Source of the DNA: Sphaerodactylus townsendi
Taxonomy: Eukaryota
Length of the DNA stretch: 64,000 nt
Direction of reading: 5' to 3'
NCBI RefSeq assembly: GCF_021028975.2
Contig: NC_059430.1
Coordinates: 56,606,001-56,670,000 of the forward strand
The notes beneath the pieces are model-generated. The model was not told the origin of the DNA, ran no database searches, and saw only the letters and a program-made list of their open reading frames with translations. Shown here piece after piece: positions 15,395-55,489 of the stretch. Each line of letters starts with the position of its first letter. The stretch's first letter is position 1. Position numbers and translations under genes: made by a program.

Positions 15395-15939
15395 TTATTG
15401 TTAAACACTATAAGTGCAGGCTTGGGCCGTGGCTGAGACAGTGTTAAGTATGTGAGTTCTGGAGCTCATACTGGATGACCATGCCTAGCACTCTCTATTT
15501 GGGGACACTACTTTAGGAGACCTCAACAAGATGGCCTCTGCCTCCAGGAGAACCCTTTGGATACTCAGTGTGAAGGAGTCTTCTCCTGGGGGATAGGAGG
15601 CCATCTTGGCCCTCCCTCACTGGTCATGTCATCCAGTTGTGCTCCATTACCTCAAATAGTGTTACTTTTTATTAGGTTATTATTTTATGCTTCTAGTTAA
15701 GAATAGTTAGTGAGTTCTATCCCACTTTATTGTTGTGGGTATTTTCTGTTTCTGCTCTATTTGCTCTGACAGTGGTATACTGATCTAAGATGGAATCAGA
15801 CTGCAAGACAGGAAGTGCAGCTGACAAAGAAAAAACTAGTTCCTGCCCCCAGAGAACGGGGTATGAAAGAACCCAACAAGATGGCCTCCTATCTCCCAGG
15901 AGAAGACCCCTTCATGGTGAGTATCCAATGGGTCGATCT
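15395..15939 (+). mobile_element. DIRS retrotransposon 3' remnant (family B): YR C-terminus, ICR, right terminus
   Basis: gtt aaa cac tat aag (VKHYK) at 15400-15414. ICR 15524-15608, whose second half is the reverse complement of the right end 15874-15934 (caacaagatggcctcctatctcccaggagaagaccccttcatggtgagtatccaatggg). Confidence 0.8.
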
Positions 15940-16129
15940 AATCATTCATATTTCAGGAGAGTGTACTTAAATCTGAGGACTTTCCCCATCCAAGAAAAGC
16001 AAGGTCACACTATTTAGTTACAAGGGCATGGGTTAACTTCATTGCTACTATTCTTACTTGACATTACCCTGAGCCTCACAGATGAGCCTAAATAGAAAGC
16101 CCGCATTAGTTTAGTCTAAGTTACAATGT

Positions 16130-17276
16130 TCAATAAATACTATATGTTTCTATGACATGAAAATTAAAGTGTGGATGTTAATTTAAAATGTGCATGTTCC
16201 ATGGATGATGTACTTTCAAATAGCACACAGACGCAGAAGAAATCTAAAGGAAACAGGAGAGTCTCTAAGAGAAATGTTGGAATTTGAAAAAGACCTTGTT
16301 TTTGCCCTGCAAAAACAACACTTGGAAAAATCAATAAATTATTGCTTAAATACGACACTGAAACAGAACCAGTCAAAGTTTGTATGATAAAGTGCATGCA
16401 AAACTTTTAAGAAGAGATTACTCTGCAACAGTGGAAATTGTTGAGGACTAGAAATATAAAATTTATGTGTCAATCTTTGAAAGAAAACTGGTACAAAATG
16501 TTTTTTGATGGTATATTATCCCAAGGGCTATTAAGAAGATGGATAAAATACATAAGGGAATATGTTGGAAGTTTCAAAAAGAAATGGGATCATCCTATCA
16601 TCGCTGGGGGAACTGGCGGGGGGGGGGGGCAGAAGGGGCAGACAACCCAGGACCTATTTGCATGGGTCACATAGGCAGCACATTTTGGCACCTCACCCCC
16701 TCTCTCCCCTGCTCCCAGCCCTTGGCTGAACTATCTCTGCCGCCAAACTCTCTCACCCACCGATGCTAAACTTGCACCACCGCACTACTGCCCCTGCCAT
16801 TTGCCTACTGCTCTGCAGGGCTTATTTTGTAGGGGCAGTGGCATGACGGGTGGAGTTTGGCAACAAGGGCTGGGTGTGGCACTCTGGTGCTGTTTTATGG
16901 TGTTCTGCCACTGTCTGTCATATGTGGTGGACATATTAAAAAATGGAAACGTTTTGGAAGGAAATCCATTCAGAAATAAAAAAAATTGAAGATCAAATTT
17001 CAAATGGATCCAGAGCTGTTAAGAAAGCTGTTAAGCTTTCTTCCAAAAAACTTGCCAGTAAAACTCCAAGAACTAGTTATGTACTCAACAACAGTAGCCA
17101 GAGTTTTAACTGCATCTTGCTGGAAAGTGGAAAGGATTCCTGATCAAGAAAATCGGGAAGACAAAATGAGAGAATACTTCAACATGGCTAAACTGAGTAG
17201 TCTTGTAAATAGAAGACCAAAACATGAGTATAATAAGAAATGGGAGCTATTTTTTGGTACTGTGCAATATGTGTAG
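16130..17276 (+). mobile_element. L1/Tx1-like LINE ORF2 C-terminal remnant, interrupted by a GC-rich insert (~16620-16910)
   Basis: Fragments LKENWYKMF, GICWKFQKEMGSSYHRW, FWKEIHSEIKKI, ARVLTASCWK; similar to 51780-51970; A-rich sense strand. Confidence 0.7.
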
Positions 17277-17651
17277 ATAATATGTTTGGCTGAAATGATT
17301 TACTAATGTACTTATCTGATATACCTTAAAATCAGCTCTGAGACAATGATAATATTTGGATATTACAGATATGATTCAATTCTTTTTGTGTATCGTTTGA
17401 TTAATTAGATTAGATAAATGATTCCTCAGTTTAATACATTTTGTCATATATTTAATCAAATGCCTATAATTATTATAAGTATTTAACAAATTTACAGACA
17501 GAGCTAAACAGATATTACTTATTTTACCAAAGGACTGATAAAGCTACATCTCAAATGATTTATGTAGTTACTTTTTATCCTGGATACTGGTTTTGTAGTT
17601 TTATGAAAATATGAATGGTAAAACATGTAGTAAAAGGTCAAATAACATAAA

Positions 17652-18611
17652 CTAGCAGGGCCCCCGTGTTTCGCTATGCATAATTCATCACAGGCTGTCT
17701 ATGAATTTCGGGGTGACATTCAACATACTTCTTTGTAGCCTGTTTGTGAACTTTGGGGTGACATGCAGCATATTTTCTCATAGCCTGTCTGTGGACTGAT
17801 GGGTTTGCTTTTGCATATTTTGCAGCAGCTTTCTGTAGTTGTCTTTTTCTAATGCAATGTGTTATTGCTCTCTTTCACCTGATGTGCTCCAAAAGATGTC
17901 ATGTGGAAGCAGCCGTTGTATTTTTGGGATGCAGAAAGGAAGTGTTCTGCCATTGGATGCTGATGAGTGAGAAGGCTGTGAAGAGGTTCAGGGTAGGGTT
18001 GAAGGGCAGGGAGCTGGACTGTACCGCCACTGCAGCACATTCCTGGGGACTCATCCCGCCACTTCAGAGCATGACACCAATCACAGGGTGATCGGAGGCC
18101 GAGAGCAGTAAACTTGTCTGCACAGTAATCAATCGGATGTCCATGTGCAAAACCCGACAAATGTTTAGTAGTTCAAGGTGATAGTGTGGTTTGTAATCTG
18201 TTTTGATTGTATTTGCCTGTAGCGGTGTTGTTAAAGTGAGGGTGGGTGGAGGAGTACTTTTTCACAGCCTGACTGTTAACTTCGGGGTGACATTCAGCAT
18301 GCTTTTTTGCAGCCTGTTTGTTGAAGCTGGTGGTGTTTAACTGTCACCCTTAGAATGTTCATGCAGCATGTCTGTGGACTGAGGGGCTGGTTTGCCCTTA
18401 GAATGTTTGTGCAGATGGCCAGAGATGAGCAGTTAAAACAGTAAATGTGTAATAACTCGAGTAAAACTGAATATTTTGAAAAATCCTTTCTTAGTGACCA
18501 CATAATGAACCGGTGTGCCAAATTTCAACTTTGTAGGTTTGGTGGTTTTTGAGTTCTTTTGATGAGTTAGTCAGTGAGTCAGTCAGTGGTATTCCATGTT
18601 TTAGATATAGA
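17652..18611 (-). mobile_element. Helitron, internally deleted, with intact termini and a Rep/Hel N-terminal fragment
   Basis: Minus strand begins TC (18611-18610) after host A and ends CTAG (17655-17652) before host T; subterminal agcgaaacacggg motif; internal ~45-bp repeats (agcctgt..gtgaactt.ggggtgacat). Confidence 0.9.
17849..18160 (-). pseudogene. Helitron Rep/Hel protein fragment (Cys-rich region upstream of Rep)
   Basis: CDWCHALKWRDESPGMCCSGGTVQLPALQPYPEPLHSLL...HFL....KYNGCFHMTSFGA matches the CxxC..LKW..E..GMCC..G.V.LP...KYN..F.MTSFGA pattern of Helitron proteins. Confidence 0.88.
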
Positions 18612-18799
18612 TAAGAATGAATGTCAGTTCTCTCTTTATTATTGACTATAAAAGAAGATCCATACTATATTTAATCTTGATATAGAGTGTATGTTGATTT
18701 ATATAAAGTAATGTTTTATGTGGTGGTTATGATTTATTCTTTCTTTTTTTTAAAAAAATTATATGGAAAAATGCTAATTTTTTTAAAAGATCATTTATA

Positions 18800-19162
18800 C
18801 TATAGTGTTTTCCTTACTATGCATGGGTGTTAAAGCTGGAAATGTTAAATGGATGTTTTAGCTGGAAAGTAAATAAAGCAGACAGGAAGAAAATTGATTC
18901 ACTTGAAATGTGATGTTGGAAGGGAATTGTATAGAAACCACGGACTGCCGAAAAGATAAATAAGTGGGCTCTAGGTCAAATCAAACCTGAATTCTCCCTA
19001 GAAGCTAAAATGGCTAAACTGCGGTGATTGACTAAACATGAGATGATTGATTCAATGAAGGAAGCTATGGCCTTTTGTTACAAGACTAATTTGGGCTGTA
19101 AGTGATAGGATATTTTGAAGATCATTAATTCTTAGGGTCATTTATAAGTCAGAAGTGACGAT
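18800..19162 (+). mobile_element. RTE-BovB LINE 3' fragment, degenerate
   Basis: Encodes remnants of KADRKKIDSLEM*CW and QIKPEFSLEAKMAKLR; ends gggtca..tataagtcagaagtgac. Confidence 0.75.
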
Positions 19163-19735: not shown

Positions 19736-20928
19736 TTCCATGATTTAGGTCAAAGGATTTTTGTGGATCCAAGGCTGCAGTTTTAGGGAGGAGGGCAGAA
19801 TTGCCTTCCCCCCCCCTCCTCTGCTGGAAGTGGAAATGTAACAAAACAAGTTTTCCTTTTGTTAAGAGAAGACAATGATAATTTTTGCCCATCTCTCTCT
19901 TTACTTCAGCCACCTATGCCCCGTTGTATTTTGTCCATGAACTTCCAGTGTACTCAGCAATGGCTTTTAGGGTTTCTTAGGGGAAGAGAAGATGAGATCT
20001 GCCTCTACAAGCTTATGGTTTCTTATTATTCTTGGGATCCAAGCCTAAGGTTTTTATGTGTCACATTTACTTTTGGTAACTCCTGTTTGTTTTCCGTAGG
20101 ACCTCAGGAATTACAACTATGGAACCTTACATCTTATGGGTAGTACTGTTAAATACTTCCATCCACCATCCAGTTTGTCTTTTGCTGCTCAGCTAAAGCT
20201 TCACTGCTCTGCCATTGCTATATCGTATGGTAGTTCAGGGTTGGATTACCAGGTTCTGCCACTGAGTGCTGCTAAATAATGAAGAGGAGTCTTGCATACC
20301 TCCAGGGTATGGGGTAGTCTTGAGGTATTGCCAGCTCAACTCTGCTGAGTTGATGTAACATCAAGTATGTGTGTGAAGTTACTACTGTGCAGGCACTACT
20401 TTCTTAGCAGCTATGTACATGAATGGTGCTGAAAGGAGCCATTCTCCATTGAAGCGATGGAAGTCTGCGATGGAACATACCGGTATGCTACCAGGAGGCG
20501 GGATCTTCTTAAAGAGTAACGTTGACCCCTCGTCCGGGTTAAGATCCCCAGTTGACTTCCTGCCTCTACAGGAGAGCAAGGCTTTTAGCAGAGCTCCTCT
20601 TTTTTCTTCAAGAGCTCTCGGTTTTAGCTTCCCTTATTCTTCTATCCTACTGTGCGTTCGTTTCCTCCCTTCCTCCTTCCCCAGCTGAAACTGAGTACGA
20701 GGAGGGCTTCTAGCGGCGTTAAGCGGAAGCTAATCACCCCCCTCCGTCGAGGGCTTCAAGCAGCTCTTCAGCATAGCCGGTTTTGGCGCAGACCTGCGGC
20801 GTGACGATCAACCAGCGGCGAAACGCACTGGCCAGGCCGGTACAGGCAGCCAGCTTTTCCTGGCAGTAAATCTCAGCTCTCACAAGAGCTGATTCACAGA
20901 GATTTTCATCAACTGGTAGGCGGCAACT

Positions 20929-22492
20929 ATGGCCGAATGACGATTTCCCTGAAAGGGAAAACCTTGCCGCTGGCGAGGTCACCGGGCTTCTGCAGCCCAG
21001 AGCTTCCTCCCTCCAGTCTGAGACCGGCAGGAATGCTCGTCAACAGAAGCAGCTAAAGTCAACCATCTGCTGTCAAATCCGGGTATCGTCGGCGGACCAG
21101 CAACTGGCGGGCACGAGTCCCAAAGCGTGGGGGCCCCTGCTACCTCCCAGAAGTAAAGCGACAAGAGCCTTAAGCGCCGAGACTGAACTGCGACAAAGCC
21201 TGAACCACGGCAGAAGTAATTGTGCCCCAGGGGTGTTGATGTTGGGCAATAAGCTCGGTTCTTTCAGGAGGAGCCAGGTCAACCTTTCAGACAACCCAAG
21301 CGCGTAGGCTCTATTTACTGTCCCCTGCAGTTGCTAACTTGCTTATACAACTTGGCTCCAACATCAGGAACTCAGTACATGCTCCCAGCTGCCGGCTGGG
21401 TCAGTTTCAGCCCCTCCTAACACAGGAATCAGAGGAAGCGAAGCAGGCATTGAGTGAGGGGGGTGTGTAGAAGAGAAGAGGAAAAAAAGGATTCTCTCTG
21501 ACACGAAGACAATAGATGGGGCAGTGAGCAAGCCTAGGTTTTCCAGAGTTAAGAAGACCTTCATTCCTGATCTCTAGAACCATCTCTGCCCTAGACACTC
21601 AAGATTCTGCAGAAACGAAGAGGTTCCCAATCCTCAACAACTCAAACTTATCCAAAGAGCGGGCCAAAGGGGAAATCAGTTATTTCCATCAGGATGGAGC
21701 GGACAAGTCGTGCTTTCCATTCAGGGCTTACGAAGAATTGGAAAAGTGGCAAAATCCACATCCAGCAAAAACCCACCTCCTTGCTTCAGGAAACTCTCGC
21801 TCTCCTACTTCGTTCAAATCCTGCAGGTCCCCTGGTAGGCGCCTGTCAGCGTCTATCAATCGGCTAACCCTGGTTTCAGAGATGGAGGCGGATCCATTAA
21901 AGATACTCAGACAGGAGGCAGATGTGCACCTCAAAGGGCGTACCCGAGTGCTTAGCCATATCCCATGAAGGCACTTCTCCCATCGCTTCACAGTGGCCAG
22001 GAGCACTCCTGGCTGGCTCCAGAATCTCAGAACTCCTTCCACCAGAGCACAGAGCCATTAAAGAAGGGATTGATAGGGTTAAATAAGGCCTCCTTCTAAG
22101 CGGACTCCACCTAGATGCCCTGGCGATGGCGGCCAGATCAATGGCCCTAAAATTAAGCCAGGCGAACCATCTGGCTGCGCTCCTGGAAAGCGGGCCTTTT
22201 TCAAAGTGGCGATCACCGGCTTCACTTCCAGGAGAGAAACTTTTTTGGCAGAACTGACCAAATCCTAGTCAAAGACAAAAGACGAAAATTACTCCAGCCG
22301 TCCGACAGGACAGCTCTTCGGCACAGAGTTCAGCAGTTCCTTTAGATTCTTTAGTTCCTTCGTTCCTTCGGGCGGAGACGAATAGATCAACTGGCAACAG
22401 CAATATCACTCCAGTGGGCCTTCTAGAAGGGATCGCTTTTCGACCTTTAAAACTACGATTCACCAGGTCGGATCGAGACCAACAGACAATGA
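20929..22492 (+). pseudogene. DIRS ORF1 (gag-like), unit 1, frameshifted as assembled
   Basis: ATG at 20929 corresponds to 26274 of unit 2; fragments EKWQNP, SEMEADPLK, ADVHLK; TGA at 22490-22492 overlaps the pol start. Confidence 0.65.
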
Positions 22493-24285
22493 CTGCACTC
22501 GACAGTGGGGAGGCTGCTCCATTTCAACCAACAATGGGACCTGGCACCTGCGATGCTTGGGCAGAGAGGTGGATTCGCCAGGCTACAATAAGTGCCACTT
22601 CCCAAAACATGATTCTTCCCATCCCCACTGAGCCCCAATTCAGAAAAAGAGACACAGAACGAGCCATACACCGCCTACTTTCCATGCAAGCAATCGAACA
22701 TGTACCTGCACAACACAAACGCCTGCGAGTCTACTCCCCACTTTCACCGTCGAAAAATCAGGGGGACTGGAGGGCAATCCTCAACCTCAATAAAATGAAC
22801 CAACACGCAAAATTAGCAAATTCAAGATGGAACCTCGCACCATCAGCATCCATCAGGAAGAGAATTCCTAACCTCACTCGACCTCCACAGGAGGAGCCTA
22901 CCTCCCGTCCCCATCCGCAAAGACGCGAAAGGATTCCTCAGCAGCGGTGGAGGCAAGACACTTTCAATTCCAAGGCACCCGGGACTTTATCTGTACTTGA
23001 GTTTTCTCAAAATCATGCCCCCCACACGCAATCACCCCATTGGCGAGGAATACCGTCCACCCTTACTTGGGCGACATTCTAATTCGATCAAACCAAATCC
23101 ACTGCGCCGCCAAGAGCGTCAAAGCGAGTAACCCAAACGCTAACAATTAGGTTTCCTAATAAACAAGTCAAAAAAGTTCCTCCACCCACAGGATGGAACA
23201 CCTAGGGTGCCAATTGTGGACCTGAGTTAAAATTCCTTTTCCTCCCCACAGACAAAGTGCTTTAAAATCCAGAAGAAGTTTCTCGAGCTCATCTCCAGCA
23301 TGCGACAAATGTCCCTAATGCACCTGTCGAGCATACTAGGTCGAGATGATGGCGGAAAGCATGATCGGTCCAATGAAGAATGCATCTTGAGACCACCATA
23401 AGCCTTTCGCCAGTATCAATGGGACATCACCCACAAGCGGGATCAACAAATAGCGTAATCCCATTTCTCATTTGAAAAACCAATCTCAGATTGGACCGGA
23501 TTCTCACAACTTTCCCAGGGGAAGATGCACACAGATCGAAGGAGCGGATCAGATCTTCACAGATGCCGACCTGACCGTGGGGAGCCATAAGGGTCCCACA
23601 TGGTCCAGGACACTGGTCACAGTCTCAAGCTCTTCATCAATCTGCTTATAGAGACATACGGTCTCACTAGCTCTCATCCATTTCAGGACCAGATAATTGC
23701 ACCAGCGCGTATTAATCAAAACAGACAATATAATGGGGCCTACATAAATCATCAGGGAGATTCAGATCGCGACTCCTACAGAAAGAGGCGACAAGATCAT
23801 GAACTGGGCGAGTCCAGCCTCTCATCTGTAAACAGAACATCAAGTTAATTAGACATCACGGCCGATTGAAACCAGCCGACAGACCTGGACAATGCAGAGT
23901 GGACTCGCCTCCGGTCTTCCAGCAACTAATAGACCCTTCCCAGCCCAAAGATGAGGCCTCACGCATCTCAAGAACAATTCCAACTTCGCCGGTTCGTAAT
24001 GCCGCTTCGCTTCTGCAAGACAGCCATATGCGCGCTCCACGGCCCCCTGGCCTCCAGAGACACTTTATGCATTCCCACATTCCCCTCATCCCAAAACTAC
24101 TCAGGCGCCTGTTCAGGAACAGGCAGCAGCCGAATCTAATAGCCCCATACTGGCCCGCAGACCCTGGTTCTCCATGCTAAGACGGTGGGGAACCAATTCC
24201 ATACCGTCCAGGCGGACCTTCTCATTCAAGGGACGGTATGGCACCCGGACTGAGCATTACACTGGCGCCTGGCTATTGAGAGGGA
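22489..24285 (+). pseudogene. DIRS pol (RT, RNase H, Dam-like methyltransferase), unit 1, frameshifted
   Basis: GDWRAILNLNKMNQH, HPYLGDILIRS (YLDD site), IFTDA, AYINHQG, IPLIPKLL..LIAPYWP. Confidence 0.85.
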
Positions 24286-25320
24286 ACAGGGTTAAGAGAA
24301 GAAAGGCATTTCGGCTCAGGTCATACAGACCATTCTAAAACTCCTGAAGCATTAGATCACTTCAGAATTTATGACTATACATAGAGAAAGTGTTGATGTG
24401 ATGGGCCTCCATTAGACATTTGGTCCCCAAAAAAGCCTTAACTGGCACACATCCTAGAATTCCTCCAGGGTGGGGTGACAGAGGGTCTCAAGCCTCAACC
24501 CTCCGTGAACGAACTGGCAGCCTTTCAGCGGTCCTGACCCAAAATCCAGGGCCGCATGCGTTTCGGATTCACCCCCAGACGCCTCACGGTTCCACAAAAA
24601 GGGGTTTCCCAAACACAATCTCCAAAATTCACAGGTTTCCCTCTGGAACCTACATGCAGTGTTGAAACCTCGCTAGATAAGCCCATTTTGAACCAATCGG
24701 ATCAATTCGCCTCCGTTGGTTGAGGATGAAACACCACCATTCCTTGTGGCCTTGAGCATCAGCCAGGGAGAGTCTCAGAACTCCAGATCCTCAATATCCC
24801 TGACTGTTGCACAATTCATCGGACGGGGTCGCCTAAGATCGAACCCTTCCTTCCAGCCCAAAGCGCATCAACTTTCATTTGAAACAAGAAATAAGGTATG
24901 CGGTATTCTACCCAAAACCTTCAGCTAACAGGAAAAGTTGTGGCACAAATTAGGCGTGCGCCAGGTCCTTAAAGCGTTCCTGGTACTTGCAGAGGACATC
25001 AGGGAAATCAACAGCCATATTTATCCGTGGCCCATCCCTGGGCTGGAGCAGATGTCGGGTGCTGCTATAAAGCAGCAGCCATCCGCGCCACCATCTCCGA
25101 AGGCCTCATCCCCACTAAACTGTCAGTACCAGCGAGATTACAGCCCATTCTGTCGGCCTGGCTGCCAATGCGGCTGTTAGGCAGCGAATCAGTTGAGGAT
25201 ATTTGTGGCTGACCATCTGGTCATCCTCATCTTCACATTAGTTAGGCATTATAAGTTGGTTCGCCCCAGTCCGCAGTTCAGACTGCCTTGATGCAGATTC
25301 TGGATCTGAATTAGAAGAAG
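24280..25320 (+). pseudogene. DIRS tyrosine recombinase, unit 1, frameshifted
   Basis: PFEPI.SI.LRWLRMK, PSFQPK, WHKLGVRQVLKAFL, SVEDIC, aggcattataag (RHYK, catalytic Tyr) at ~25244-25255. Confidence 0.8.
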
Positions 25321-26273
25321 CCGAACTACCGCCAGGGAGCAGGAACCTTGCGGCGTTGTAGGTCCCATCGCGGAACTTCCGTCTGCGGTCGGCTATTGGT
25401 TCACTCACGGTAGAAGGCGCTTTCTCCGGTTAGAGGTAGGAAGTCAACCTCCGCCGACGGTTTCCATCAAATCCTGAATTGATTAGTCAGTTACCCCTCA
25501 AATGTTAGTGGGTTAGTTATCCCCAATGTTAGTGGAGTTAGTTTAAAAGAGTTAAGATTGTTTTGCGGAGTGTATGCGTTTGTTTAAGACTTCTACGTGG
25601 TCAGTTAGCAACTGGGGATCTTAACCGGACGAGGGTCCTTGGAAGCAATTCTTTAAAGAAGATCCTGCCTCCTGGTAGCAGACAACAGGAGGAACCGCCA
25701 TGAGACTTCAGTTAGCCTAACGGAGAAAAGGCTCTTAACTGTTGCGGTGGTAGACAATAGCCATTCTCCGATGAAGCGTGGGAAGTCTCGATGGGTTCTC
25801 CTGTTGTCTGCTACCAGGAGGCAGGATCTTCTTAAAAAATTGCTTCCCGTTGACCCCTCGTCCGGTTAAGATCCCCAGTTGACTTGCTTCCTGCCTCTAC
25901 AGGAGAGCAAGACTTTTAGCAGAGCTCCTCTTTTTTTTCTTCAAGAGCTCTCGGTTTAGCTTCCCTTATTCTTCTATCCTGCAATGGATTCGTTTCCCTC
26001 CTTCCCTCCCTTCCCAGCTGAAACTAATTACGAGGAGGGCTTCCTGGCGCGGCGTTGGCGAGGCTATTATTGCCCCTCCGTCGAGGGCTGAAGCGGCGCC
26101 TCTTCAAAGCCGCCCGGTTTGGCAGCAGACCTGCGGCAGCGCCCGGCGATCCAGCCAGCAGCTTTTTTGGCGAAACGCAGCCATTTGAGCGGCGGCTTTT
26201 TTTCCTGCGTAAATCTCCAGCTCTCACAGAGAGCTGATTCTGAAGATTTTCATCAGCCTAGCGGGCGGCAACT

Positions 26274-27890
26274 ATGGCGGACGGCCGGTTTTCCCCTGAA
26301 AGGGAAACCTTTACCCGCACAGCGGCGGAGTCCACCCGGGCTTCTGCAGCCAGAGCTTCCTCCACTCAGTCTGAGACCGGCAGGAATGCTCCGTCAACAG
26401 GCGCAGCCGCTAAGTCCAGCCGTCTGCTGTCCAAATCCGGGCGCTCTAAATCGGCGGACCAACAGCCCCAAGCATGAGGGCACAGTCCCCAAAGCGGCGT
26501 GGGGCCCCTGCCCCTCCCAGAGCGTGGCTGACAAGGAAGCATAAGCACATCGAGACTGCGACAAAGCATACAGACCCGCGGCAAGTAATTATTGCCCCAG
26601 GGGAGTGTTGATGTTGGGCAACCAAACTCGGTTCCTTTCAGGAGGAGACCAGGTCAACCTTTCAGACAACCCAAACGCATGGGCTCTGGCTACTCCCCTG
26701 CAATTTGCTAACTTGCTTATACAACAGCTCCAACATCAGGGCACTCCGGTACATGCTCCCCAACTGCCCGGCTGGGTCAGTTCAGCCCACTCTAACACAG
26801 GAATCAGAGGAAGCCCGAAGCAGGCATTAGTGGGGAGTGTGTAGAAGAAGGAAGGATTCTCTGACACAGAGACGGCCAGATCGAACCCGGTGGAAGGCAA
26901 ACCCCTAGGTTTTTCAGGTTAGAAGACCTTCCATTCCTGATCTCTAGAACCATCTCTGCCCTAGACCTCAAGATTCTGCCAGAAGCAGAAGAGGTTCCCA
27001 CAATCCTCAACAACTCAAACTATCAAAGGGCGGACCAAGGAAATCAGGATTATTTCCATCAGGATGGAGCAGGACAAATTAAGTAACCCACATTCAGAGG
27101 CTTTGAAGAGAATTGGGAAAGAGTGGCAAAATCCACATCCAGCAAAACCACCTCCTTAGCTAGAAACTCGGCTCTCCCTGCTACGTTCACAAATCCTGCA
27201 GGTCCCTACAATTTAGGCAGCACCTGTCGTCTATCCAGTGTAGCCTAGTTTCCAGAGATGAGCCGGATCCATTAAGATACTCAAGACAGGAAGGCAGATG
27301 TGCACCTCAAAGAGACTGCGAGGTGTAGCCATATCCATGAAGGCGCTACCATCGCTACAGTGGCCAGGGCACTCCTGGCCTGGCTCAAAAGATCTCAGAA
27401 CTCCTTCCACCAGAGCACCAGAGCCATTAAAGAAGGGATTGATAGGGTTGAAATAGGGCCTCCTTCTAGCGGACTCCACCCTGGATGCCCTAGCGATGGC
27501 AGCCAGATCAATGTGTCGTGCAACCAGGCAGACCATCTGGCTCGCTCACCAGAGCGGGCCTTTTCTAAGGCAGCCGTCACCGGCTACCACTTCAGGAGAA
27601 AACTTTTTGGCCCAGAACTTGACGGAAATCCTAGTCAAAGACAAAGACGAAAATTACTCCCACGCTTAGATCCGACGGGACAGCTCTCTTCCAACAGGGG
27701 TTCCAGCGGTTCCTTTAGATTCTTTTCGTTCCTTCGTTTCCTTCCACCGAGATGAGGAGACAGGAATAGATCCAACTGGCAACAACAATATCACTCCAGT
27801 GGGCCTTCTAGAAGGGGGGATCCTTTGGAGCCTTTTAAAGGAGAGGCGACCCGGTTATTCACCAGGTCGGATAAGACCAACAGACAATGA
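26274..27890 (+). pseudogene. DIRS ORF1 (gag-like), unit 2
   Basis: MADGRFSPERETFTRTAAESTRASAARASS..., LATPLQFANLLIQQLQ, VARALLAWLK...AIKEGIDRVEI, GYHFRRKLFGPELD; TGA at 27888-27890. Confidence 0.7.
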
Positions 27891-29695
27891 CTGCACTCAC
27901 ATTCCAGTGGGGAGGCTGCTCCATTCAGCCAACAATGGGACCTGGCACCTGCAGATGCTTGGGCCAGAGAGGTAGTTCACTTAGGCTACACTAGAATTCT
28001 TACACTTTAAAGCTGTCGATTCTTCCCATTACTGGAAGGCCCAATTCAGAAAGAGACATACAAGAACTTTGGGCGCCATACACCTACTTTCCATACAAGC
28101 AATCGAACATGTACAACACAAACACCACGAGGGTCTACTCCCACTTTTCACCGTCGAAAAATCAGGGGACTGGAGGGCAATCCTCAACCTCAATCATTGA
28201 ACCAACACATAAGGGTGCGCCAAAATTCAAGATGGAACCTTTCGCACCATCCGGCATCCATCAGGAAGGAGAATTCCCTAACCTCCTCGACCTCTGAGCC
28301 TACCTCCGTCCCCATCCACCAGACACAGAAAATTCCTCCGGCAGCGTGGAGCAAGGAATTTTCAATTCAAGGCTTTGCCGTTGAACTGCATCTGCACCCG
28401 GTTTTCAAAATCCTATTGCCCCATAATCACTACGTCAACAGGAATACCGTCCACCCTTACTTGGGCTGACATTCTAGTCGATCAAAACCAAATCCACTGC
28501 GCTTTCGCCAGGCGTCAACGGTAACCCGAAACACTTCAACAATTCGGTTTCCTAATAAACAAGTCAAAAGTTCCTCACACCCACACACAGGATGGGTACC
28601 TAGGTGTAATTGTGGACCTGGGTTAAATTCCCCTTTCCTCCGAACCAAAGGTGCTAAAAATCCAGAAAGAAGTTTCTCAGCTCATCTCCAGCAAACAAAT
28701 GTCCCTAATGCACCTATCGAGGCATACTAGGTCAGATGATAAGCGACCATCGATCGCGGTCAATGGTAGAATGCATGCGAGACCACTGCAAGCCTTTCTC
28801 CGTAGTATCAATGGGACATCACCCACAAGCGGGATCAACAAATAGTAATCCCATTCTCATTGAAAACCAATCTCAGATGGTGGACCAGTTCTCACAACCT
28901 TTCCCAGGGGAAGGTCTACCTGGTCGGGAGCGGATCAAAGATCTTCACAGATGCCAGCCTGACCGGCTGGGGAGCCACCCACAGGGTCCCACATGGTCCA
29001 AGGACACTGGTCTACAGTCTCAGAAGCTCTTCACATCAATCTGCTAGAGACAACGATTCTCTAGCTCTCATCCATTTCAAAGGACCAGATGGTGCACCAG
29101 CGCATTATCAAAACAGACAATATAGCTCGCGAGGGCCTACATAAATCATCAGGGGAGGGTCCAGATCGGCGACTCCTACGAAGGAGGCCGACAAGATCAT
29201 GGTGGGCCGAGTCCAGCCTCATCTATACAAGCAGAACACATCAAGGGTCAATTGAACATCACGGCGATTGGGCTCAGCCGACAGACTACAGGACAATGCA
29301 GAGTGGACTCTTCTCCCGGAGGTCTTCCAACAACTAATGAGCCGCTACCTTAAAGATAGACCTCTTTGCATCTCCAGAACAATTCCCCAACTTCAGCCAG
29401 TTCATGTCATGGCTGCCTGCCAAGACAGCCATAGCAATATAACGCACTCCGGCCCCCTGGCCTCCAGAGACACTTTATGCATTCCACCCATTCCCCTCAT
29501 CCCAAAACTACTCAGAAACCTGTTCCAGGAACAGGCAACATTGATCTATTAGCCCCATACTGGCCATGAACCTGGTTCTCCACAATACTAGAACTAGCAG
29601 TGGGGAACCAATTCCTGTTGAGCGGACCTTCTCATTCAGGGACGGTATGGCACCGGACCAGACAGGCTACCTAGCAAAAGCCTGGCTATTGAGAG
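27887..29695 (+). pseudogene. DIRS pol (RT/RNase H/MT), unit 2
   Basis: PKFKME, HPYLG, LRWW, KIFTDASLTGWGATH, IIKTDN, WWAESSL, AEWTLLPEVFQQL, PPIPLIPKLLRNL. Confidence 0.88.
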
Positions 29696-30730
29696 AGGGA
29701 CGGGGTTAAGAAGAAAAGGCGCTACTTTCGGCTCAGGTCATACAGACCATTCTAAACTCTAGGCATTAGATCCACTTCCAGAATTTATGACTATACATGG
29801 AAAGTGTTAAATGCGATGGGCCTCCATTGAACGAGTGAATCCCCAAAAGCCTTAACTGGCACACATCTAGAATTCCTCAGGGTGGGGTGACAGAGGGGTC
29901 TCAGAGCCTCAACCCTCCGTGAACAACTGGCAGCCCTTTCAGCGGTCTGGCCCAAAATCCAGAACCACGGCGTTCCAGTTCACCCAGACATCCTACGGTT
30001 CTAAAGGGGTTTCCCAAACACAATCTCCAAATTCACAGGTTTCCCTCCTGGAACCTACATACAGTGTTATTGGCTCCTCACTAGATAAGCCCTTTGAACC
30101 AATCCGGTCAATTCACCTCCGTTGGTTGAGGATGAAACTTCTATTCCTTGTGTATAACATCAATGGGAGAGTCTCAGAGACTCAGATCCTCAATACTCCT
30201 GACTGTTGCACAATTCATCAGGACAGGGTCACCCCTAAGATCAGACCCTTCCTTCAGCCCAAAGCATCAACTTTCATTTGAAGCAAAATAGTGCTCGATT
30301 ATTCTACCCCAAACCAGCCCCAATGACGAGGAAAAGTTGTGAAAACAAATTAGGCGATCTTGCGGGTCCTTAAAAGCGTTCTGAATGCGCTGAAAGAGGG
30401 ACATCAGGAAATCCAACAGCCTATTTATCCAGCGTGGCCCATCCTAGGCTGGGAACAGATGTCGGGTGCTGCGCTATAAAACTTAGCATGCATCCCAGCA
30501 CCTGCATCTCCGAGGCCCTCGCCTCCGCCCCAATATCCCGAGTACCAGCGGGAGTAAAGCTGGCATTCTGTCCATTTCTTTGCTGCTACCAATCGCGGCT
30601 GTTAGGCGAATCAGTTGAGGATATTTGTAGGCTGACCATCTGGTCATCCTCATCTACATTAAGTTAGAGCATTATAAGTTGGATTCTTGGTCCGCCAGTT
30701 CAACGCCGGTATAAGATTCTGGATCTGGTT
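29690..30730 (+). pseudogene. DIRS tyrosine recombinase, unit 2
   Basis: DKPFEPIRSIHLRWLRMKLLFLV...RVSE, PFLQPK, SVEDICRLTIWSSSSTL followed by cattataag (HYK). Confidence 0.85.
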
Positions 30731-33700
30731 AGAGGAAACTGAACTTCCCACCCAGGGAGCAGGGACGCGGCGGCGTTGTAGGTCCCATCGCAGACTTCCG
30801 TTACGAATGTCGGCTATTCGGTTCACTCCCGTGAAGAGCCTTTCTGCCTCGGTTGGCGTTAGGAAGTCTCAACAGAACAGTTTTCCATCAAATCCTGAGT
30901 ATTAAGATCAGCGGATTACCCCTCAAATGTTAGTGGAGTTCAGTTATCCCCAATGTTAGTGGGTTAGTTTAAAGGTTAAGATTGTTTTCTTGAGTTAATG
31001 CGTTTGTTTTAAGACTTCGTGGTCCAGTTCGCAACTGGGGATCTTAACCCGGACGAGGGGTCAACGGGAAGCAATTCTTTTAAGAAGATCCTGCCTCCTG
31101 GTAGCAGACAACAGGAGAACCCATCGCAGACTTCCCACGCCTAACCGGAGAAAGGCTCTTCACGGTGAGTGAACCAATAGCCGATCTTAGTCCCTCTGGT
31201 GCTGCTTCTTGACATACTCTAGGAGGAGCACACAATCTCTCTTCTCTATTCATTGGTGTCTGGGAATAGAAGCTATTAGTCTACCACTGACAATGAGTTC
31301 TGTTGCCAGTGTTTGGATTTTTTCCAAAATGTTCTTAATTTCCCCTGGAATATTATTAATGCTGGACTGAGCATCAGTTGACCATGAGCATCATTAGGCA
31401 GCCCTGGGGCTGAATATTAAGTCCTGGCCCTCCTCAGATGACTACTGCATTAGCAGCTTTTCTATATAGAAACAGTAGAACAATGTGAGATAAAAATAAA
31501 TGTCATGTATTCTGTACAACCAGCTGTCTTGTGAGTAGCTAACCTTTGTTTGACCAGCTAGAAAAGCCTATAGAACAATAATATATGTGAAGAACAAAGC
31601 TATTTTGGGTTATTTATTTTTGGCTTCAAAGTACATACTGAACTTTCCTTGTAATGATCTACACACTTTAAAAACATGATTCAAATGAATCATGTCAACA
31701 TCAAGTTATTCATTCTGACAGCACAAGCTTTGTTTGCATTTTGATGCACTTAAGCACATAACTAAATTTTTTCTGTTGATGTTAAAAAAATCTATCTGCA
31801 GTCTTTCACTCTTTCAACTTTTGGAGTATTTGTGAAATTTATCTAGAGTTATATGTTTGTCAGTCCCACTGAAATGAATAGGACTACAGCACCCCTAGGG
31901 GAGTGCAGGATACTTCTGGGCCAGTGAAATGATGTTTAAGTTACGTACTGATCATATTTTTCCACTATTGTAGAAATAATATTACAAACTAGGATAAGAT
32001 GTAATTAAATGTAATGTTTCTATTTAAGCAATGGTGTGTACTTTGTTTTTGAATCTATTTTTTAAACAAAAATATACATGGAAAGACCAAACTCTGTATC
32101 ATCTTTGAGACTAACTAATCTTTATAATAGTTTCTAAGCTTTCACAGCAAAGCCTCTTTTTTCAGGTGACAGAAATTGAATTAAAATGTATGAGGTATTG
32201 AACTTAATCTCCAAATTTGCCACTAAACCAAGCTTTTAATTAACCATAATGTACTGTGTGTGCAGTTAACCTAAAGTATGCTATTTGTATAATTTAAAAA
32301 AGAGATTAGTATCCTTTACAAAGCATTTTCTGGTTCTGCCTACGAAAGCTCAAAATATAAGGGCTTGTGTCCTGCCTCGAATTTCTGCACATGCAAGGGT
32401 GTGCATGATTTGCTCCTAGCTCCCCTTCTTGTAGAAGTCCAAAATGCCCACCCAAAGAGTTGCTCCTGGGGATCCTCAGGAATAAATTGAGGAATCAGAG
32501 TTCTCCTCTGAAGAAAGGGAAATTCACGAAAATTGACTCATCCTTATGGTTGCAGAAATTCTACATAGGAACCAAGCCAAGTAGTTGAATATATAAGAAA
32601 ATGTTCACAGAACTCTGATAGTTTTGTGAGGCTATAAAAAACCCACCAAAAAAAAAAGAGCATTAAAAATTAAAAACAACGTAAGGAGAGAGAATCATGC
32701 TAAAATGTTTTGACTGGTTTGAGTTTGTTTTGTCCCCGAGCAACCCCATCCAAAGGCCGGGTGCCCAGATACTACTCCACAATTGCTCCACCTCGGCATT
32801 CCCATTGGGGCTTTCTGGTGGTATGGAGAGGCAAAAACAATAAAAAGACTCCTTTGGGCTTAATGGACTTACACCATCAACAAAGTGGTATATGTCCAAA
32901 ACCCTCTCTAAGGCAACAGCTGGGGAAGCCAACTAGTGTCAGCTCTTTCCCCACCACACTTCTGGACCACTCCTGCTTTGCCAGTGAAGGTTCAGGAATG
33001 CTGATATGGTGCTCAACACCACATTCCACCACTGTGGAGGGCTGCAATGGCCACCTTCTGGTGAATGCCCTCGGGAGGGCATATCCTCTGACGCAGCCCC
33101 ATGCTGCTCTTTGAATGAGGCTGTAATTCTTTCTAATGTTGTCAATAAAACAGCCTAGGCTTTTGTCACCCGACTCACATGGGTTCTTGAGAGTAAGTGA
33201 GCATCCAGCAGGCCAAATAATTTTTTAAAAAAATTATATAAAAATAGAAGAAAATGTAAAAATCAACATGAAAAGTCCTTCAGCAGGTATAATAACATCT
33301 GCATAAATAGCAGAAGATTAGCTGAAACATAAGACAGGATAAAATATGCAAATATTAGCATAGTCCTTAAATCTATTTGGTGTTGGCCTCAGTTTCTTCC
33401 AGCAAGCATAGGTTGAGGAAAAGATATAGCATTTCCAGTAGGCTCAGAATAAATTAGAATGGCATAGTCACTCTAGCTCCATAGTAAGTTTTTTATAACA
33501 ATTCATCAACCACGGTCGGGTGAATTCAAACCAATTAGAGCTAAATTTGAGTGGAACTTTTCAAAGCCAAGCTTCTGGTCATACTCACATGTCAGCCAAT
33601 TAATGACTTGGGCCAGCCTGGCTCAGATAATCACAACACCCCTTTAATGTTTTGAGGGTTTGAGACCAGTAGCTAATACTTCCTGCTCATTCTCATAATA

Positions 33701-34328: not shown

Positions 34329-34379
34329 TATCTGATCATTGATCTTTAAAGTACTGTGTACATTTAATAAACATACAAT

Positions 34380-45989: not shown

Positions 45990-48116
45990 ATAGTCCATGG
46001 TTATGAGAAGTTGTGGTGAGAGACAAAAAGCAGGCGCCGCACAACAAGAAGCAGCATCTGGCTGAACAGCCGGCAACAAGCACCAGCGACCCAAGACGCT
46101 CTTCGCCCCCCATCACAGGAGGAGACAAGGGAAGGGGGCCGGCAAGGTGTTAGCGACCCATATATGGCCATGGGACACCGAGAAGACTGTGGAGAGTCTT
46201 CAAGCTGCGCCAGCGACCCGGGCAGGGCTGCAACAGGCGCGAGCTCTTCTTCTGCCACTTCAGAGACCTCCGGTTCCAACACCACAGTCAGGCAATACTG
46301 GGCAGGGGGAAGCAGGAAAGAGAGGGCAGCTTCTGGTTCTCATTACCTGACCCTGAGTCTTGGCAGAATGCTTCCCCAAGGGAACTCATAGAGCTGCTTA
46401 GCCACACCATGAGAGAGGAGATTCACCTTTACCATGAGGGAAGGGAGTCCAGGCGTAGCCACAGGTCTCTTTCTTTTCCCAGATCCCATAGCCTGATACT
46501 GCCAGGGAGACTCATAGATCACCCAGTCCCCAACTCTCCAGGGAGGGCTGCAGACCAAGGGACCCCCTCTCCCTTCCAGGGAATCGTGACATCAGTGAGG
46601 GGGAGCTAGAAGACCTCTCTGATCATTTTTTCAGATCTGGAGGAAACCCCAACTGAAACAACAACAATAATAACAGTGGTAACAACAATTCCTTTCTCCT
46701 CTTGGAAAACCAGGGAAGAATTTCCAGACAGACAGACCCAACTGCTCCTGACTACCTGTCCATCCCGGTCGGCGGCCACCTAAAACACTATCAACATCTC
46801 TGGCAGGGCAGCCACGTCGACCAATGGACAAAAGAGGTCATCATGTCCAGATACCTCATAGAATTCTTCAAAATGCCAAAGCCATGCTTCCTGTCATTTC
46901 CCAGACATTCTCGACTGAACAAGGCACAAAGAACAGAAGTGGCAAATCAATTATCTCCTCAACATACATACAGTAGAGCCAGTCCCTGCATGGGAGAGGG
47001 CTTTAGGGGTGTCTCCAGCCGTGCCCAAGTGGAACTTCTTTACCGTGCCCAAGCGAAACGAAGATTGGAGTGCAATCCTGAACATACATTTCATCAACAG
47101 GCACATCAAGCTGCAAAAGTTCAGAATGGAAACCCTTCGGTCCATCACAGAGGCTCTACACCCAGGGGACTTCTTGACATCATTGAACCTGGCAGAAGCA
47201 TACCTGCATGTCCCAATCAACCTGATTCACAGGAGATTTCTATGTTTTGCAGTAGAAACCAACCATTACCAATTGAGGGCACTTTCCTTCGGCCTGGCAA
47301 CAGCGCCCAAGGTATTTTCCAGGATCCTGATAGCCCTCATCATTCTGCTGCGGGAACAGTGGATCCATGTGTACCCCTACCTAGATGACCTGCTCATCTG
47401 GTCTGCCTCCAGGGATCAGACCAGACAGGATGTGGAACGGGTCCATCAAATTCTGAGTCGACATGGGTTCCTGGTCAGCCTTCAGAAGAGCTGTCTAGTA
47501 CCCTCCAGAAGAGTGGAACATCTGGGTGCTCTCATTGATACATCCTGCAATTCTCTCTTTGTGCCAAGGGACAAGGTCCTCAACATTCAGTAGGCGATAA
47601 CAATGGTCCTTTCAGCCAAATCAGCGTCCCTTCTTCAGATGCCCAGTTTCATGGGCCTGTTTATTTCCATAATAGACATGGTCCAATGGGTTCGCCTGCA
47701 TGCAAGATCCCTGTAACAGTTTCTGAGACCCTTCCAGCTCCAAATTATGGAAAAGAAGGACCGAAAACTGCAAATTTGCAAATTAGACCTGATAAGCCCA
47801 TTACCTTCTTTAGTGAGAGTTAAACTGTTACCTTTAGTCATGACTGGAGCCTTTCCGTCTTGTTTCTGTTTTTTAAATTGTTCATGTTACGGTTTACCAT
47901 TCTTGTTATTTCCTGTTATTCTGTTACTGCAAAAGTTTTGTACTGCTTTGTCAGTGATTTATTGGAGGACAAGATGACTACCCAAGCCTACCATAGGAAG
48001 TGACAGAATCTGAGTTCCTGCCTCCCTGAGGAAGTGGTTGGGAAACCACCCAGCAAGATGTCCTCCTGCCTACCAGGAGAAGGACCCTTCTCGGTAAGTA
48101 ATCAGTGGACCGTTCT
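45990..48116 (+). mobile_element. DIRS retrotransposon remnant (family C): gag end, RT, large internal deletion, right terminus
   Basis: IPVGGHLKHYQHLW, DQWTKEVIM.RYLIEF, RT ORF; homology lost at ~47770; terminus caagatgtcctcctgcctaccaggagaaggacccttctcggtaagtaatcagtggaccgttct. Confidence 0.88.
47009..47593 (+). pseudogene. DIRS reverse transcriptase core fragment
   Basis: FFTVPKRNEDWSAILN, KFRMETLRSI, SLNLAEAYLHVPI, LSFGLATAPKVFSR, VYPYLDDLLI, KSCLVPSRRVEHLG; in-frame stop at 47591-47593. Confidence 0.92.
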
Positions 48117-52560: not shown

Positions 52561-52667
52561 TCCACTGGCACTGGGTGTCTTGGTATTAGCCTGAACCGTA
52601 GGGAATAATCCAACCGGCTCAATTTTCCAAGCCTTCCTGATGATGGTCAGGACAGTCGTCTTTCCAC

Positions 52668-52757
52668 TATTTATTTATTTATTTATTTATATTTTAGATT
52701 TATAGGCCGCCTCTTCCCCGAAGGGCTCTTCCCCGAAGGGCCTCTTCCCCGAAGGGC
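52668..52757 (-). repeat. L2/SINE-type 3' tail with (TTTA)n and a triplicated ctcttccccgaaggg unit
   Basis: atttatttattt...gccgcctcttccccgaagggctcttccccgaagggcctcttccccgaaggg; compare 36598-36643. Confidence 0.7.
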
Positions 52758-53099
52758 ATTCTAGTCTCCAACCAGGGCCTGTGCTGCACATCTATACAAA
52801 ACTGAAATAAAAATGAACAAACATGATAAAAAATGCAGAAGGGTGTATTTTTGCTGCACTGTTGCTTTTCTTATCCCTAATAAAATATTCATGAATTTTC
52901 CAGCTTGGAACTGTTCCATGATCTAAGGAAAACAATTAAATATGTAGTATGATGATGTGCTATGTGGGTTTTATATATTTGGAGACTTTCCATGTAGCAG
53001 TGCCAATCTGGTAGCATTCAGGAGGGGATCAAGTTACAGCTCAAAGTGGCTGTGAGGCTGGAGGAGAGAGAGGGGGGAAAGAGAGAATCCAAAGCTTAC

Positions 53100-55172
53100 T
53101 CTGAGTAAGACAGGCCCAGTTCACTGTCCAAAGGGAGAAGTTGAGGGTTGCGATGGGATGCTACCAGATATTCCTTTGGGATTATATGGCACAATGAATT
53201 GTTTTCCTCCCAGAGGATAAAAATACTCTTGCCAAGGTCCTGTTGTTGGCTGATGGTTCCACACTTGGAAAGCAGCAATCAAATGCCACCAGTCTTATGG
53301 CTGAAAGTGCCAGCAGAGTCATGGCTTATGGAGTGGTTTAAGGGGGCAGTCATGGTTGAGAGAACCTCCTGGCACCTGGGCCAGAGTGAAATACCTCCTT
53401 TTTGAGGGAAAAGCTCTATTTTGGTTAGGAAACTGGTACCACCTTTGACAGAATTAGGAAAAGTCTATTTACTGCAAAATCCCTAGGTATTATCTCCCCA
53501 AACATTGGGGATTTCAAGCAAAGGTACTTTCCTAAGGCCAGAAGCTTTCTACGAAGTTGTATCCCTATCAGCAGTTATTATTTAAATCCCCATCAATCCC
53601 CTGTAGATCATTTACATTTCAGACATTTTCTTTTCATTTTCTGGGGATATCTGGGTGGTACTGATCGACTTGAAGGATCTGTATTTTTATGTATCCATTC
53701 ACCAGTCTTGTAGAAAGTTTCTAAGGTTTCAGTGTGGGGATAATCTTTATGAATATAATGTTTTACCCTTTGGATTAGTGACAGCCCCACATATCTTTAC
53801 CAAATGTAGTGCCCATCTTATCATCAAAAGGTTGTGATATGTATTCTTTGAATCAAGCCTGGAACGTGATTTGGCTTTTGCCTCCCATACACTAACTAAC
53901 AGGTTTTTCATCCACACACAAGAAAGGATAGGTTCCATGTCTCTCTGGGCTGAGGTTTCCTGGTTGGGGCAATGGAGTATACCAAGCAACATTTCTCTGT
54001 CTGCCATCCATGTGATAGGAGAAAGCAACACCCCTGCTAATTTCCTTAGCAGACAGGTTTTGTCAAATCACCAGTGATCCATCAGTGCCCATAATTTACT
54101 TCCAGTTTTCAGGGAATAGAGATTCCCTTGTGGTGACCTGTTTGCTACCAAGAGCAAATGCAAAGTGTTCCAGGACAGGGACAGACAAGTGTTCCAGGAC
54201 AGGGACAGACAAGGAGTCATTGGGGGGATGCCTTAAAACTGGGTTGGTCATGTTGCCTCTGCTATGCCTTCCCTCCCTTCCTTCTGATGCACAAGGCCCT
54301 AGCAAAAATGACCTCAGATCAGTCAACAGGGATTGTCATTGCCCCCTATTGGCCAAAGACATTACACTGCCTGCATGTTTCCTGAATCTCCAGGCGAGCA
54401 ATCACTCCACACACTTGATGGCTGTTGGGCTCTCTATTTAATTTCAGTTGTACAAATTCATTTCCACAAGACAAGATTGTATTTATTTGCTTCATAGATC
54501 ATAACAAGGGCAAAGCTGCTGCTGCTCAGCCATTTCTAAATGAATGGTTTCTGCCAATAGATTGGCATGTAGCAGTGCTAAGGTAGATTGTCCACTTCAA
54601 GTTAAGGCTCATTCCACCAGGTCACAAACCAGGGGCAACCTCCACAGCAACTGGTGTGCTCCAGGTTTCTCTAGTATTATTCCATCAATGTGGATTTCAG
54701 GAAAGATGTAGCTGTTCTGAGAGTAGGTTTACAGTATTTCATTGACAAGTGAACACCTGCCTCCATGGTAAGTAAGTGTGCTACTTTTCCATGCAGGACC
54801 CCATTGAAGAAACAACACTGAAGATAAAGTTGCAATTAGCTGTAATTGTTGCTCATTGAGTGATTTCTGTGAAGGCATGCATCCCTCCCTCCTTTCCCTG
54901 AGGTTGCTGCCATTCTGCCTTCCTGGTACTCTTCCATGGTAGTGTAGAACTGAGGGAGGAGCACTCTCCCTGCCTCCATCATATGACCATTTGGACAGGA
55001 AACCAGCCCTCTCTCTGCTCCAAAAGGGAGGGGGAGAATGTTCCAAGCACTCTAAAGCCTTGGGAAGCCTTTTAGTCAGTTATTTGTGATTGGCCTGAAT
55101 CTGTGCAGTCCCTTTATTTGACTGCACAGACATTCAATGAATAATTACAGGTAAGTGTAACTTTGTTTTCTT
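53100..55172 (+). mobile_element. Old, multiply deleted DIRS retrotransposon (family D)
   Basis: Ordered remnants: gag (EGKALF), RT (IDLKDLYFYVSIH..RKFLRF..LPFGLVTAPHIFTK), RNase H (AIHVIGESNTPANFLSR), MT (YAFPP..VIAPYWP), YR (VKAHSTR at 54601). ICR ~54826-54870 complements the terminus 55120-55165. Confidence 0.85.
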
Positions 55173-55489
55173 CTTGTTTTCAGAATTTAATATGCCAGTC
55201 TTAAAGAAGTACTGAATCTGCTTGGAATGGTGTTGCAGTACCACAGACTGGTATCACCAATAGCTGCAATTCCATATGGTGTTAACTGTGTATTGTGTTG
55301 ACTATACAGTCATAACATGTGGTAACATGACTCCTTCCCATAATGGAACTATACAGTGATTAGACAGCTGAGTTCACTTCATAGTGTAAATTTTATTGGC
55401 ACCCTCCCTAAACAATAAAGTGTTTGAAATACAGCCCCACAGTTTTCTCATTTGTTCAATAAATGTGCCATATTACTGAAAGCCTGGCT

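Follow-up and report, generated by a model that had tools for sequence, protein, structure and literature searches.

The right ends of DIRS1-like retrotransposons in a 64-kb stretch of the Sphaerodactylus townsendi genome (contig NC_059430.1, positions 56,606,001 to 56,670,000; hereafter the window, from whose first base all coordinates are counted) carry the heptamer GGTRAGT, which resembles the donor, or 5' splice site, recognised by the U1 small nuclear ribonucleoprotein (U1 snRNP). This raises the question why elements that integrate by a tyrosine recombinase (YR) keep such a motif next to their terminus. The initial annotation of this DNA had proposed a terminal code, namely a recombinase-binding arm and/or a U1 site at a fixed distance from a TCT end. 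The observations presented here point to a donor-like motif that is conserved in the right extension (rE) of these elements and varies as U1 pairing would predict; no description of it could be found. A U1-dependent role of the motif at the RNA level, taken in its broad sense, is on balance probable.

On the plus strand of the window, GGTRAGT occurs eight times, and the four instances reported for the right ends (Table 1) were indeed present, each at the right end of a multicopy DIRS1-like element. The 1.81-Gb genome was searched with the end of each of the four families, and the best 30 loci per search were kept out of 63, 62, 57 and 41 matches. After removal of left ends and of loci stopping short of the end, 23 right ends of family B, 27 of A, 22 of C and 23 of D remained. 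Among these best loci, GTRAG was present in 23/23 (B), 23/27 (A), 19/22 (C) and 15/23 (D) ends, and the full GGTRAGT in 21, 14, 14 and 14, respectively; by eye, many of the losses at position -1 resemble CpG decay. By chance, GTRAG occurs in about 3.5% of 33-nt stretches, taken either from the window sequence or from shuffled rE.

Over their last 60 nt, A, B and C can be aligned with each other (41-45 identities; scores of 13-30 versus shuffle maxima of 1-2) and have CCAAT in common, and one locus was matched in both the A and the C search. In contrast, the last 60 nt of D align to A, B and C only at the level of shuffled sequences. Since A, B and C are thus homologous and D is unalignable to them, the window holds two independent cases and not four. 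The description as four divergent families with a diverged spacer is overstated: D is a separate lineage, whereas A, B and C belong to one homologous clade. The donor-like motif is kept in D, although the end of this family is otherwise unalignable to A-C.

For a survey blind to the motif, 113 YR loci of the same genome were gathered via the Pfam family and three distant proteins, and their ends were placed only by the self-complementarity of the internal complementary region (ICR). Three loci had no such pair, 82 remained after merging of duplicates, and four more were removed because they had no automatic core (three of them visibly carry the motif, and one was a false pair), which resulted in 78 loci with 36 distinct rE. 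GTRAG was found in 36/36 of these types, clearly beyond the chance rate. Among the Pfam-detected YR loci (23 matches of this genome lay above the Pfam cut-off), 22/23 possessed an ICR pair and 22/22 of those GTRAG. The distance from donor to end was 18-22 nt across the 36 types, and the donor paired with U1 at 7-10 of 11 positions, counted against the textbook consensus. All 36 types represent one young clade with 52-63% YR identity to family B; this narrow span results from the fact that turtle-like, frog-like and other distant YR queries yielded the young A-C clade only.

The variation within the motif is informative in this regard. When the 34 types with agreeing ICR and end (two were left out) were placed on a YR tree, no change was seen at +1 (G), +2 (T), +4 (A) or +5 (G), while +3 changed six times, exclusively between A and G; -3, -2, -1, +7 and +8 changed four to eight times each. 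Position +6 changed once, to A, in a clade of three types with a perfect CAG exon side, and types without G at -1 had A, the stronger letter, at +3 in 7/7 cases versus 15/27 with G at -1 (Fisher p=0.036), although the types compared at -1/+3 and at +6 are related and represent only about three or four independent events or lineages. Judged by the end sequence of U1 and the tolerance rules of 5' splice sites, the variation of the donor seems to be confined to changes tolerated by U1, with those at -1 and +6 compensated, as expected from U1 pairing.

Conservation of this kind might also be neutral: pairing with the ICR and recombination would limit change throughout the short rE, and GTRAG would persist in it from an ancestor without a role of its own. 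This is quite unlikely, even if the homology of A-C reduces the window to two independent cases, several other letters of the rE are equally invariant, the motif is missing from two of the four distant elements whose ends could be identified (see below) and donor use has left no trace in the genome. Both D and the distant locus L282 retain the motif in ends that are otherwise unalignable, compared to a chance of 3.5% per 33 nt, and the six flips at +3 between A and G occur among frozen neighbours. Moreover, copying from the ICR passes any change on to the rE, so that pairing itself does not freeze letters.

The true position of the element ends bears on the second alternative, a site for a protein at the DNA level. 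In each family, the ICR, located about 350-440 nt upstream, spells out the circle junction: the rE, followed by ATT (B), GTT (A and C) or TTT (D), followed by the left end. Homology between copies ceases at TT, and in the paired flanks of full-length copies TT alone is reliably common. Three sequencing runs were compared as DNA with the stretch 14500-33500 of the window, which comprises the A and B region. In contigs from two other samples, 20440 is joined straight to 31184; the B insertion is therefore polymorphic, C31186 and T31187 are host DNA, and A31184-T31185 is common to element B and the target site. Likewise, the CT at 15938-15939 (A) and at 48115-48116 (C) is flank outside the elements. 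In the register of the window copy, TCT was found in 1/23 B, 8/27 A, 14/22 C and 11/23 D copies. The host base after the TT core was C or T in 77/78 insertions, with T at +2 in 51/78 and C at +3 in 37, and T/CT (the slash marking the junction) arises in 31/78; the base before TT is weakly conserved among the 78 right ends (L161-L273). The recombinase thus appears to prefer targets like the left end, and this preference explains the TCT of the initial annotation; it also suggests a strand-exchange zone of about TTYT rather than NTT.

From G(+1) of the donor to the end of the core, 21 (A), 22 (B), 21 (C) and 19 (D) nt were counted. The TCT letters do stand where they had been described (ending 17, 17, 17 and 15 or 18 nt after the motif), but TCT is not the element end, which is the NTT core, with CT belonging mostly to the host. 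The equal spacing of 17 nt came about because the spacer of B is 1 nt longer and one host base fewer was counted there. With a range of 18-22 nt across the 36 types, a fixed distance does not exist, and the fixed terminal code is an artefact of counting host bases and of the homology of A-C. The left ends begin with TTCTCC in A, B and some C relatives, as had been described for all of A-C, whereas many C subfamilies begin with TTCTAC; in D, TTCAT was found.

According to the DNA-level alternative, the motif would be a YR arm or a transcription-factor site that resembles a donor by chance. In the predicted circle, 18-22 nt separate the motif from the crossover core, and according to PMC7192593 YR specificity has not been studied experimentally. 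However, the distance from donor to core changes five times on the YR tree (18, 20, 21 and 22 nt; 19 nt in D), whereas the neighbouring CAATG is steady at 12 nt from the end in 33 rE types and at 11 nt in three types of one subclade. No mirror of GTRAG exists at the left ends of A-D. A mirror of CAATG, by contrast, is present in the subclade L164/L179/L230, the junctions of which read CAATG, 9 nt, CATTG and thus form a perfect inverted pair across the core. In addition, the tolerated changes of the motif fit U1 pairing. A DNA-level site is therefore considered unlikely, and the proposal of a recombinase arm spaced from a (T)TCT core was not borne out; judged from the sequence pattern, CAATG and CATTG are a candidate pair of recombinase half-sites, and CAATG would fit such a role better than GTRAG. 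CCAAT could also represent an NF-Y box.

At the RNA level, the U1 part of the earlier interpretation gains support from the pattern of variation, from the occurrence of the motif in unalignable lineages and from the absence of a sense AATAAA or ATTAAA between YR stop and end in 34/36 types. Ranked among all sense GT sites by a crude count of U1 pairing, the terminal donor was first (6) or second or tied (4) in 10/10 full-length copies. It is duplicated in the ICR, and about 40 nt of ICR-complementary sequence lie upstream of the predicted cut; anything lost beyond the cut could therefore be rebuilt under the Cappello model. The U1-like variation, the missing poly(A) signal, the rank among sense sites and this capacity for rebuilding together favour a U1/donor signal in the rE acting on sense read-through RNA, a reading that is put forward tentatively, at somewhat less than even confidence.

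According to this reading, RNA polymerase would read past the end of the element, which has no canonical poly(A) signal, and host U1 snRNP would bind the donor in the rE. The read-through RNA may then be spliced onto a downstream host acceptor and thereby borrow the terminal exon and poly(A) site of the host; alternatively, it may be handled by U1 without splicing. In retroviruses and papillomavirus, U1 at a donor suppresses nearby poly(A) sites. It is also described that a 5' splice site on RNA is able to act via U1 without being spliced (PMC12211998). The last 18-22 nt of the element and any host tail would not need to be copied, as the ICR would template the right end during circularisation of the cDNA, as in the Cappello model. 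The NTT core, with its preference for TT-Y-T targets, and perhaps the CAATG at its fixed distance would be separate, recombinase-related signals.

Several observations weigh against a donor acting on sense RNA. A splice junction about 450-550 nt after the YR stop would be expected to trigger nonsense-mediated decay (NMD). The donor would also be buried in full-length sense RNA, where more than 60 bp of pairing to the ICR take up the entire right terminus. No real spliced retrocopy was found; the single candidate break at the donor was a small ICR mutation (versus 177 intact matches), and the power of this search was low because its pattern spanned only part of the clade. Other letters of the rE (AGAA, TC, CAAT, TT) are also invariant within the A-C clade, so that invariance alone is not specific to the donor. 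Sense donors appeared scarce in the element bodies compared to a Markov null (1 versus 19.5 expected), but purging of donors is given no weight, as the scarcity shrank against a control matched for stop codons and is mostly a stop-codon effect (GGTRAG 19 versus 27.6 expected, rank 11 of 64). In Dictyostelium, the sense mRNA of DIRS-1 lacks almost the entire right long terminal repeat (LTR; PMC7192593), and a poly(A) signal has been ascribed to the 3' inverted terminal repeat (ITR; PMC4482531).

Further points of this kind come from distant elements. Metagenome contigs contained 12 YR loci with 29-42% identity over long matches; the right end was identifiable in four and not in eight. Locus L282 (37% YR identity) possesses TTACG/GTAAGA about 28 nt from its end (the slash marks the predicted cut), while its ICR copy has C at +1. 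In L274, a near-perfect U1 match occurs in the terminal-repeat copy, but its position is ambiguous, and from the ends of L281 and L279 the motif is absent. In L277, G/GTAAGT near the contig end was unanchored and left out of the count. Viral contigs and contigs of other genomes gave no matches in the wider sampling for DIRS relatives. The motif in the rE is thus widespread and not universal: the anticipated conservation over a wider DIRS set was observed for the motif in the clade of this genome, in D and in L282, and failed for the spacing and for L281 and L279. A long perfect hairpin at the terminal-repeat junction of L274 (L274:4316-4460) contains an 11-letter match to the 5' end of U1.

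As the ICR contains a copy of the donor, this copy might be the functional one, on antisense RNA from a promoter in the right ITR, and the rE copy a passenger. Located 330-470 nt from the right end, it would serve as the donor of a first exon and remove or divert antisense RNA, thereby lowering double-stranded RNA or tuning the promoter. In DIRS-1, strong promoter activity resides in both ITRs, and Dicer is supplied with RNA made in both directions (PMC4482531). An RNA starting inside the right ITR would be without the complement of the rE, so that the ICR donor would be unpaired while the sense copy is buried; at the threshold used, an antisense donor was found 327-477 nt from the end in 34/36 types. 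On the other hand, the antisense strand is rich in equal or stronger donors (86 versus 14 on the sense strand in 101 kb), and the ICR donor is therefore not special on this strand; by the pairing count, it is usually equalled or outranked by other sites. The second donor of family D, located outside the ITR/ICR duplication, occurs on the sense strand only. Altogether, a function of the antisense copy is doubtful. This second donor is kept in 6/8 homologous copies (a ninth regular-expression match was non-homologous), and in a relative (L141, position ~6670) the apparent YR stop precedes it by about 25 nt. Splicing at this site would remove the ICR and the right ITR, and the stop codon would probably be close enough to escape NMD.

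The motif might also form the loop of a small rE hairpin that acts at the RNA or single-stranded DNA stage in priming, template switching or recognition by the reverse transcriptase (RT). In the flanking stem, compensatory change was seen in 4/7 pairs (19 cells), more than in 500/500 shuffles and in slid versions, and in D a short stem surrounds the motif by eye. A hairpin at the 3' end of DIRS-1 (4792-4805) was proposed as a primer (PMC7192593). RNAalifold, however, gave no consensus structure, the stem was derived from the same related sequences, one central pair fails in 20/36 types, and a loop would be under no need to obey the U1 rules; the hairpin is therefore very unlikely to explain the motif. 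Another candidate hairpin, at the border of ITR and rE, was rejected due to the lack of covariation.

The 3' end of fission-yeast telomerase RNA is generated by the first step of splicing. In the DIRS elements, a spliceosomal cut limited to the first step might leave a free 3'-OH with about 40 nt paired to the ICR, which would prime reverse transcription across the circle junction. The cut lies inside the ICR-paired zone, and the primer of DIRS elements is unknown (PMC7192593). Nevertheless, this is highly improbable, as the ICR of Dictyostelium is not needed to start reverse transcription (PMC7192593) and the 18-22 nt after the donor leave no room for a branch point encoded by the element. 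The corresponding general scheme, in which animal DIRS elements would form the 3' end of their replication RNA via the host spliceosome and restore the terminus from the ICR-paired cut end that primes RT, is thus a far-reaching but most improbable one.

Compared to known systems, the elements of the window are DIRS1-like elements of the usual kind, whose NTT junction is already known. They share gag (LAP2alpha), RT-RNase H and YR open reading frames (ORFs), ITRs, the ICR, NTT at both ends and at the circle junction, and the lack of a target site duplication with DIRS-1, with AcDIRS1/2 of Anolis and with DIRS-like families of Xenopus (PMC3266345; Gazolla et al., PMC9210276). Their rE of about 28-34 nt corresponds to the 26-34 nt listed for vertebrate DIRS1-like elements (PMC3266345, PMC9210276), and the NTT trinucleotide was reported in 23/28 DIRS elements by Piednoel et al. 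2011 (PMC3266345). Unlike in the published DIRS1-like elements, the target preference here reaches beyond NTT (TT-Y-T), and circle and target reliably have no more than TT (or AT) in common. Completion of an incomplete transcript from the ICR would resemble the Cappello model of Dictyostelium DIRS-1, which was tested by Malicki et al. 2020 (PMC7192593), where a hairpin near the 3' end is also noted. In contrast to DIRS-1, whose RNA ends early in the right LTR and for which a poly(A) signal was reported, the elements described here are mostly without a canonical signal and possess a donor. Unpaired 5' splice sites protect RNA via U1 from Restrictor/ZC3H4 in a comparable way (PMC12211998), so that a donor lacking an acceptor of its own can steer termination or the formation of 3' ends. 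Neither this case nor those of retroviruses, papillomavirus and telomerase RNA concern a YR retrotransposon, and the tested Restrictor effect is promoter-proximal, which suits the antisense alternative better than a terminal sense copy. Protection from HUSH was rejected as a function, as a 5' splice site is not needed there (PMC8770142). Exonisation of a DIRS1 gag in TMPO/LAP2alpha and ZNF451 (PMC4495291) likewise joins DIRS sequence to host transcripts by splicing; in that case, the host was inferred to have co-opted an acceptor and a poly(A) signal that lie in ORF1, whereas the donor described here stands at the end of the element and is conserved by it.

No description of a donor in the rE was found in the literature covered; Goodwin and Poulter, the Repbase reports and most of the Piednoel supplement were outside this search. 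The string 'splic' does not occur in the main texts of PMC3266345 and PMC9210276 or in PMC2685390, and the splicing passages considered from PMC7192593 concern a marker intron. The motif gave 0 matches in 23,637 readable characters of the Piednoel supplements. In the zebrafish long-read study PMC12006353, 'DIRS' occurs 0 times in the main text and three times in the supplement (two of these are DIRS-N2_DR, listed as Ngaro), and a single mention in PMC9341512 held nothing useful. The 3' ends of DIRS RNA and the RT primer are open questions (PMC7192593), for which the rE donor predicts one exact, testable nucleotide. If it is used, many DIRS copies of reptiles, amphibians and fish would be mobile promoter-plus-donor cassettes or exon traps, possibly giving rise to chimeric transcripts, and intronic insertions should show a strand bias. 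The NTT core with its TT-Y-T preference and the CAATG at fixed distance offer substrates for a first DIRS recombinase assay.

Table 1. DIRS1-like elements of the window and their terminal features
Feature	Position	Strand	Remarks
Element A, DIRS1-like 3' remnant	15456..15937	+	Post-YR region, ICR, right ITR, rE; by blastn versus full-length L133/L134
A, ICR part complementary to right terminus	15552..15608	+	Decayed at donor
A, rE	15905..15937	+	GGTGAGT 15916-15922; predicted cut 15916/15917; CAATG; core end 15937
Element B1, first of two head-to-tail family-B copies	20441..25762	+	Many indels
Element B2, full-length family-B DIRS	25763..31185	+	gag/LAP2alpha, RT-RNase H and YR remnants; ITRs; ICR
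B2, ICR part complementary to right terminus	30810..30869	+	
B2, rE	31153..31185	+	Donor-like GGTGAGT 31164-31170; predicted cut 31164/31165
Element C, internally deleted DIRS	46946..48114	+	RT remnant 46946-47776; right ITR from ~47995
C, rE	48082..48114	+	GGTAAGT 48093-48099; predicted cut 48093/48094; GTT core 48112-48114
Element D, old and decayed DIRS (separate lineage)	53664..55169	+	RT remnant; ICR ~54780-54880; right ITR; rE
D, second donor-like GGTAAGT	54767..54773	+	Just before ICR; outside ITR/ICR duplication
D, rE	55142..55169	+	ACAG/GTAAGT 55147-55156 (GGTAAGT from 55150); predicted cut 55150/55151; TTT core end 55169

All five DIRS1-like pieces of the 64-kb window (A, B1, B2, C and D) lie on the plus strand. 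The ORFs of A are all lost, the rE donor of B1 is unreadable, and the ICR of the window copy of C is deleted. Remnants of the element ORFs were found in B, C and D of the window and in the D relatives, the YR remnants of which are about 30% identical to family B. In the intact relatives L128/L133/L155, LAP2alpha, RVT_1, RT_RNaseH and Phage_integrase were detected by Pfam, with YR scores below the Pfam cut-off. The closest named relatives of the window recombinase are those of lizards and snakes, followed by turtles and frogs. The assignment to DIRS1-like elements is based on three ORFs, ITRs with rE, and an ICR complementary to both termini that overlap at NTT; integration takes place at a shared short core without target duplication, as seen from the paired flanks of full-length copies and the empty allele of B. 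A methyltransferase after the RNase H gave no Pfam match (E<=0.01) in the two RT ORFs scanned, with no dedicated profile used.

The copies B1 and B2 (20441-31185) are joined at an ATT junction (25763-25765), show 78-83% identity to an intact copy and contain many indels. The arrangement might be genuine, arising as a tandem or by self-insertion, or the assembler might have duplicated a heterozygous insertion that was poorly polished. Host coding exons gave 0 Pfam matches in the 113/203 non-DIRS frames of the window that were scanned, and no host gene or acceptor was therefore assigned. P0014, named as an isoform of a host gene, is a YR, by eye only. On the minus strand, CAG/GTAAGT at 6342-6350 lies in a GC-rich stretch and may be the donor of a host first exon. 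Across many subfamilies, numerous genomic copies retain an open YR frame (about 970 aa) and show 100% identity of ICR and end, which makes ongoing DIRS activity in this genome probable.

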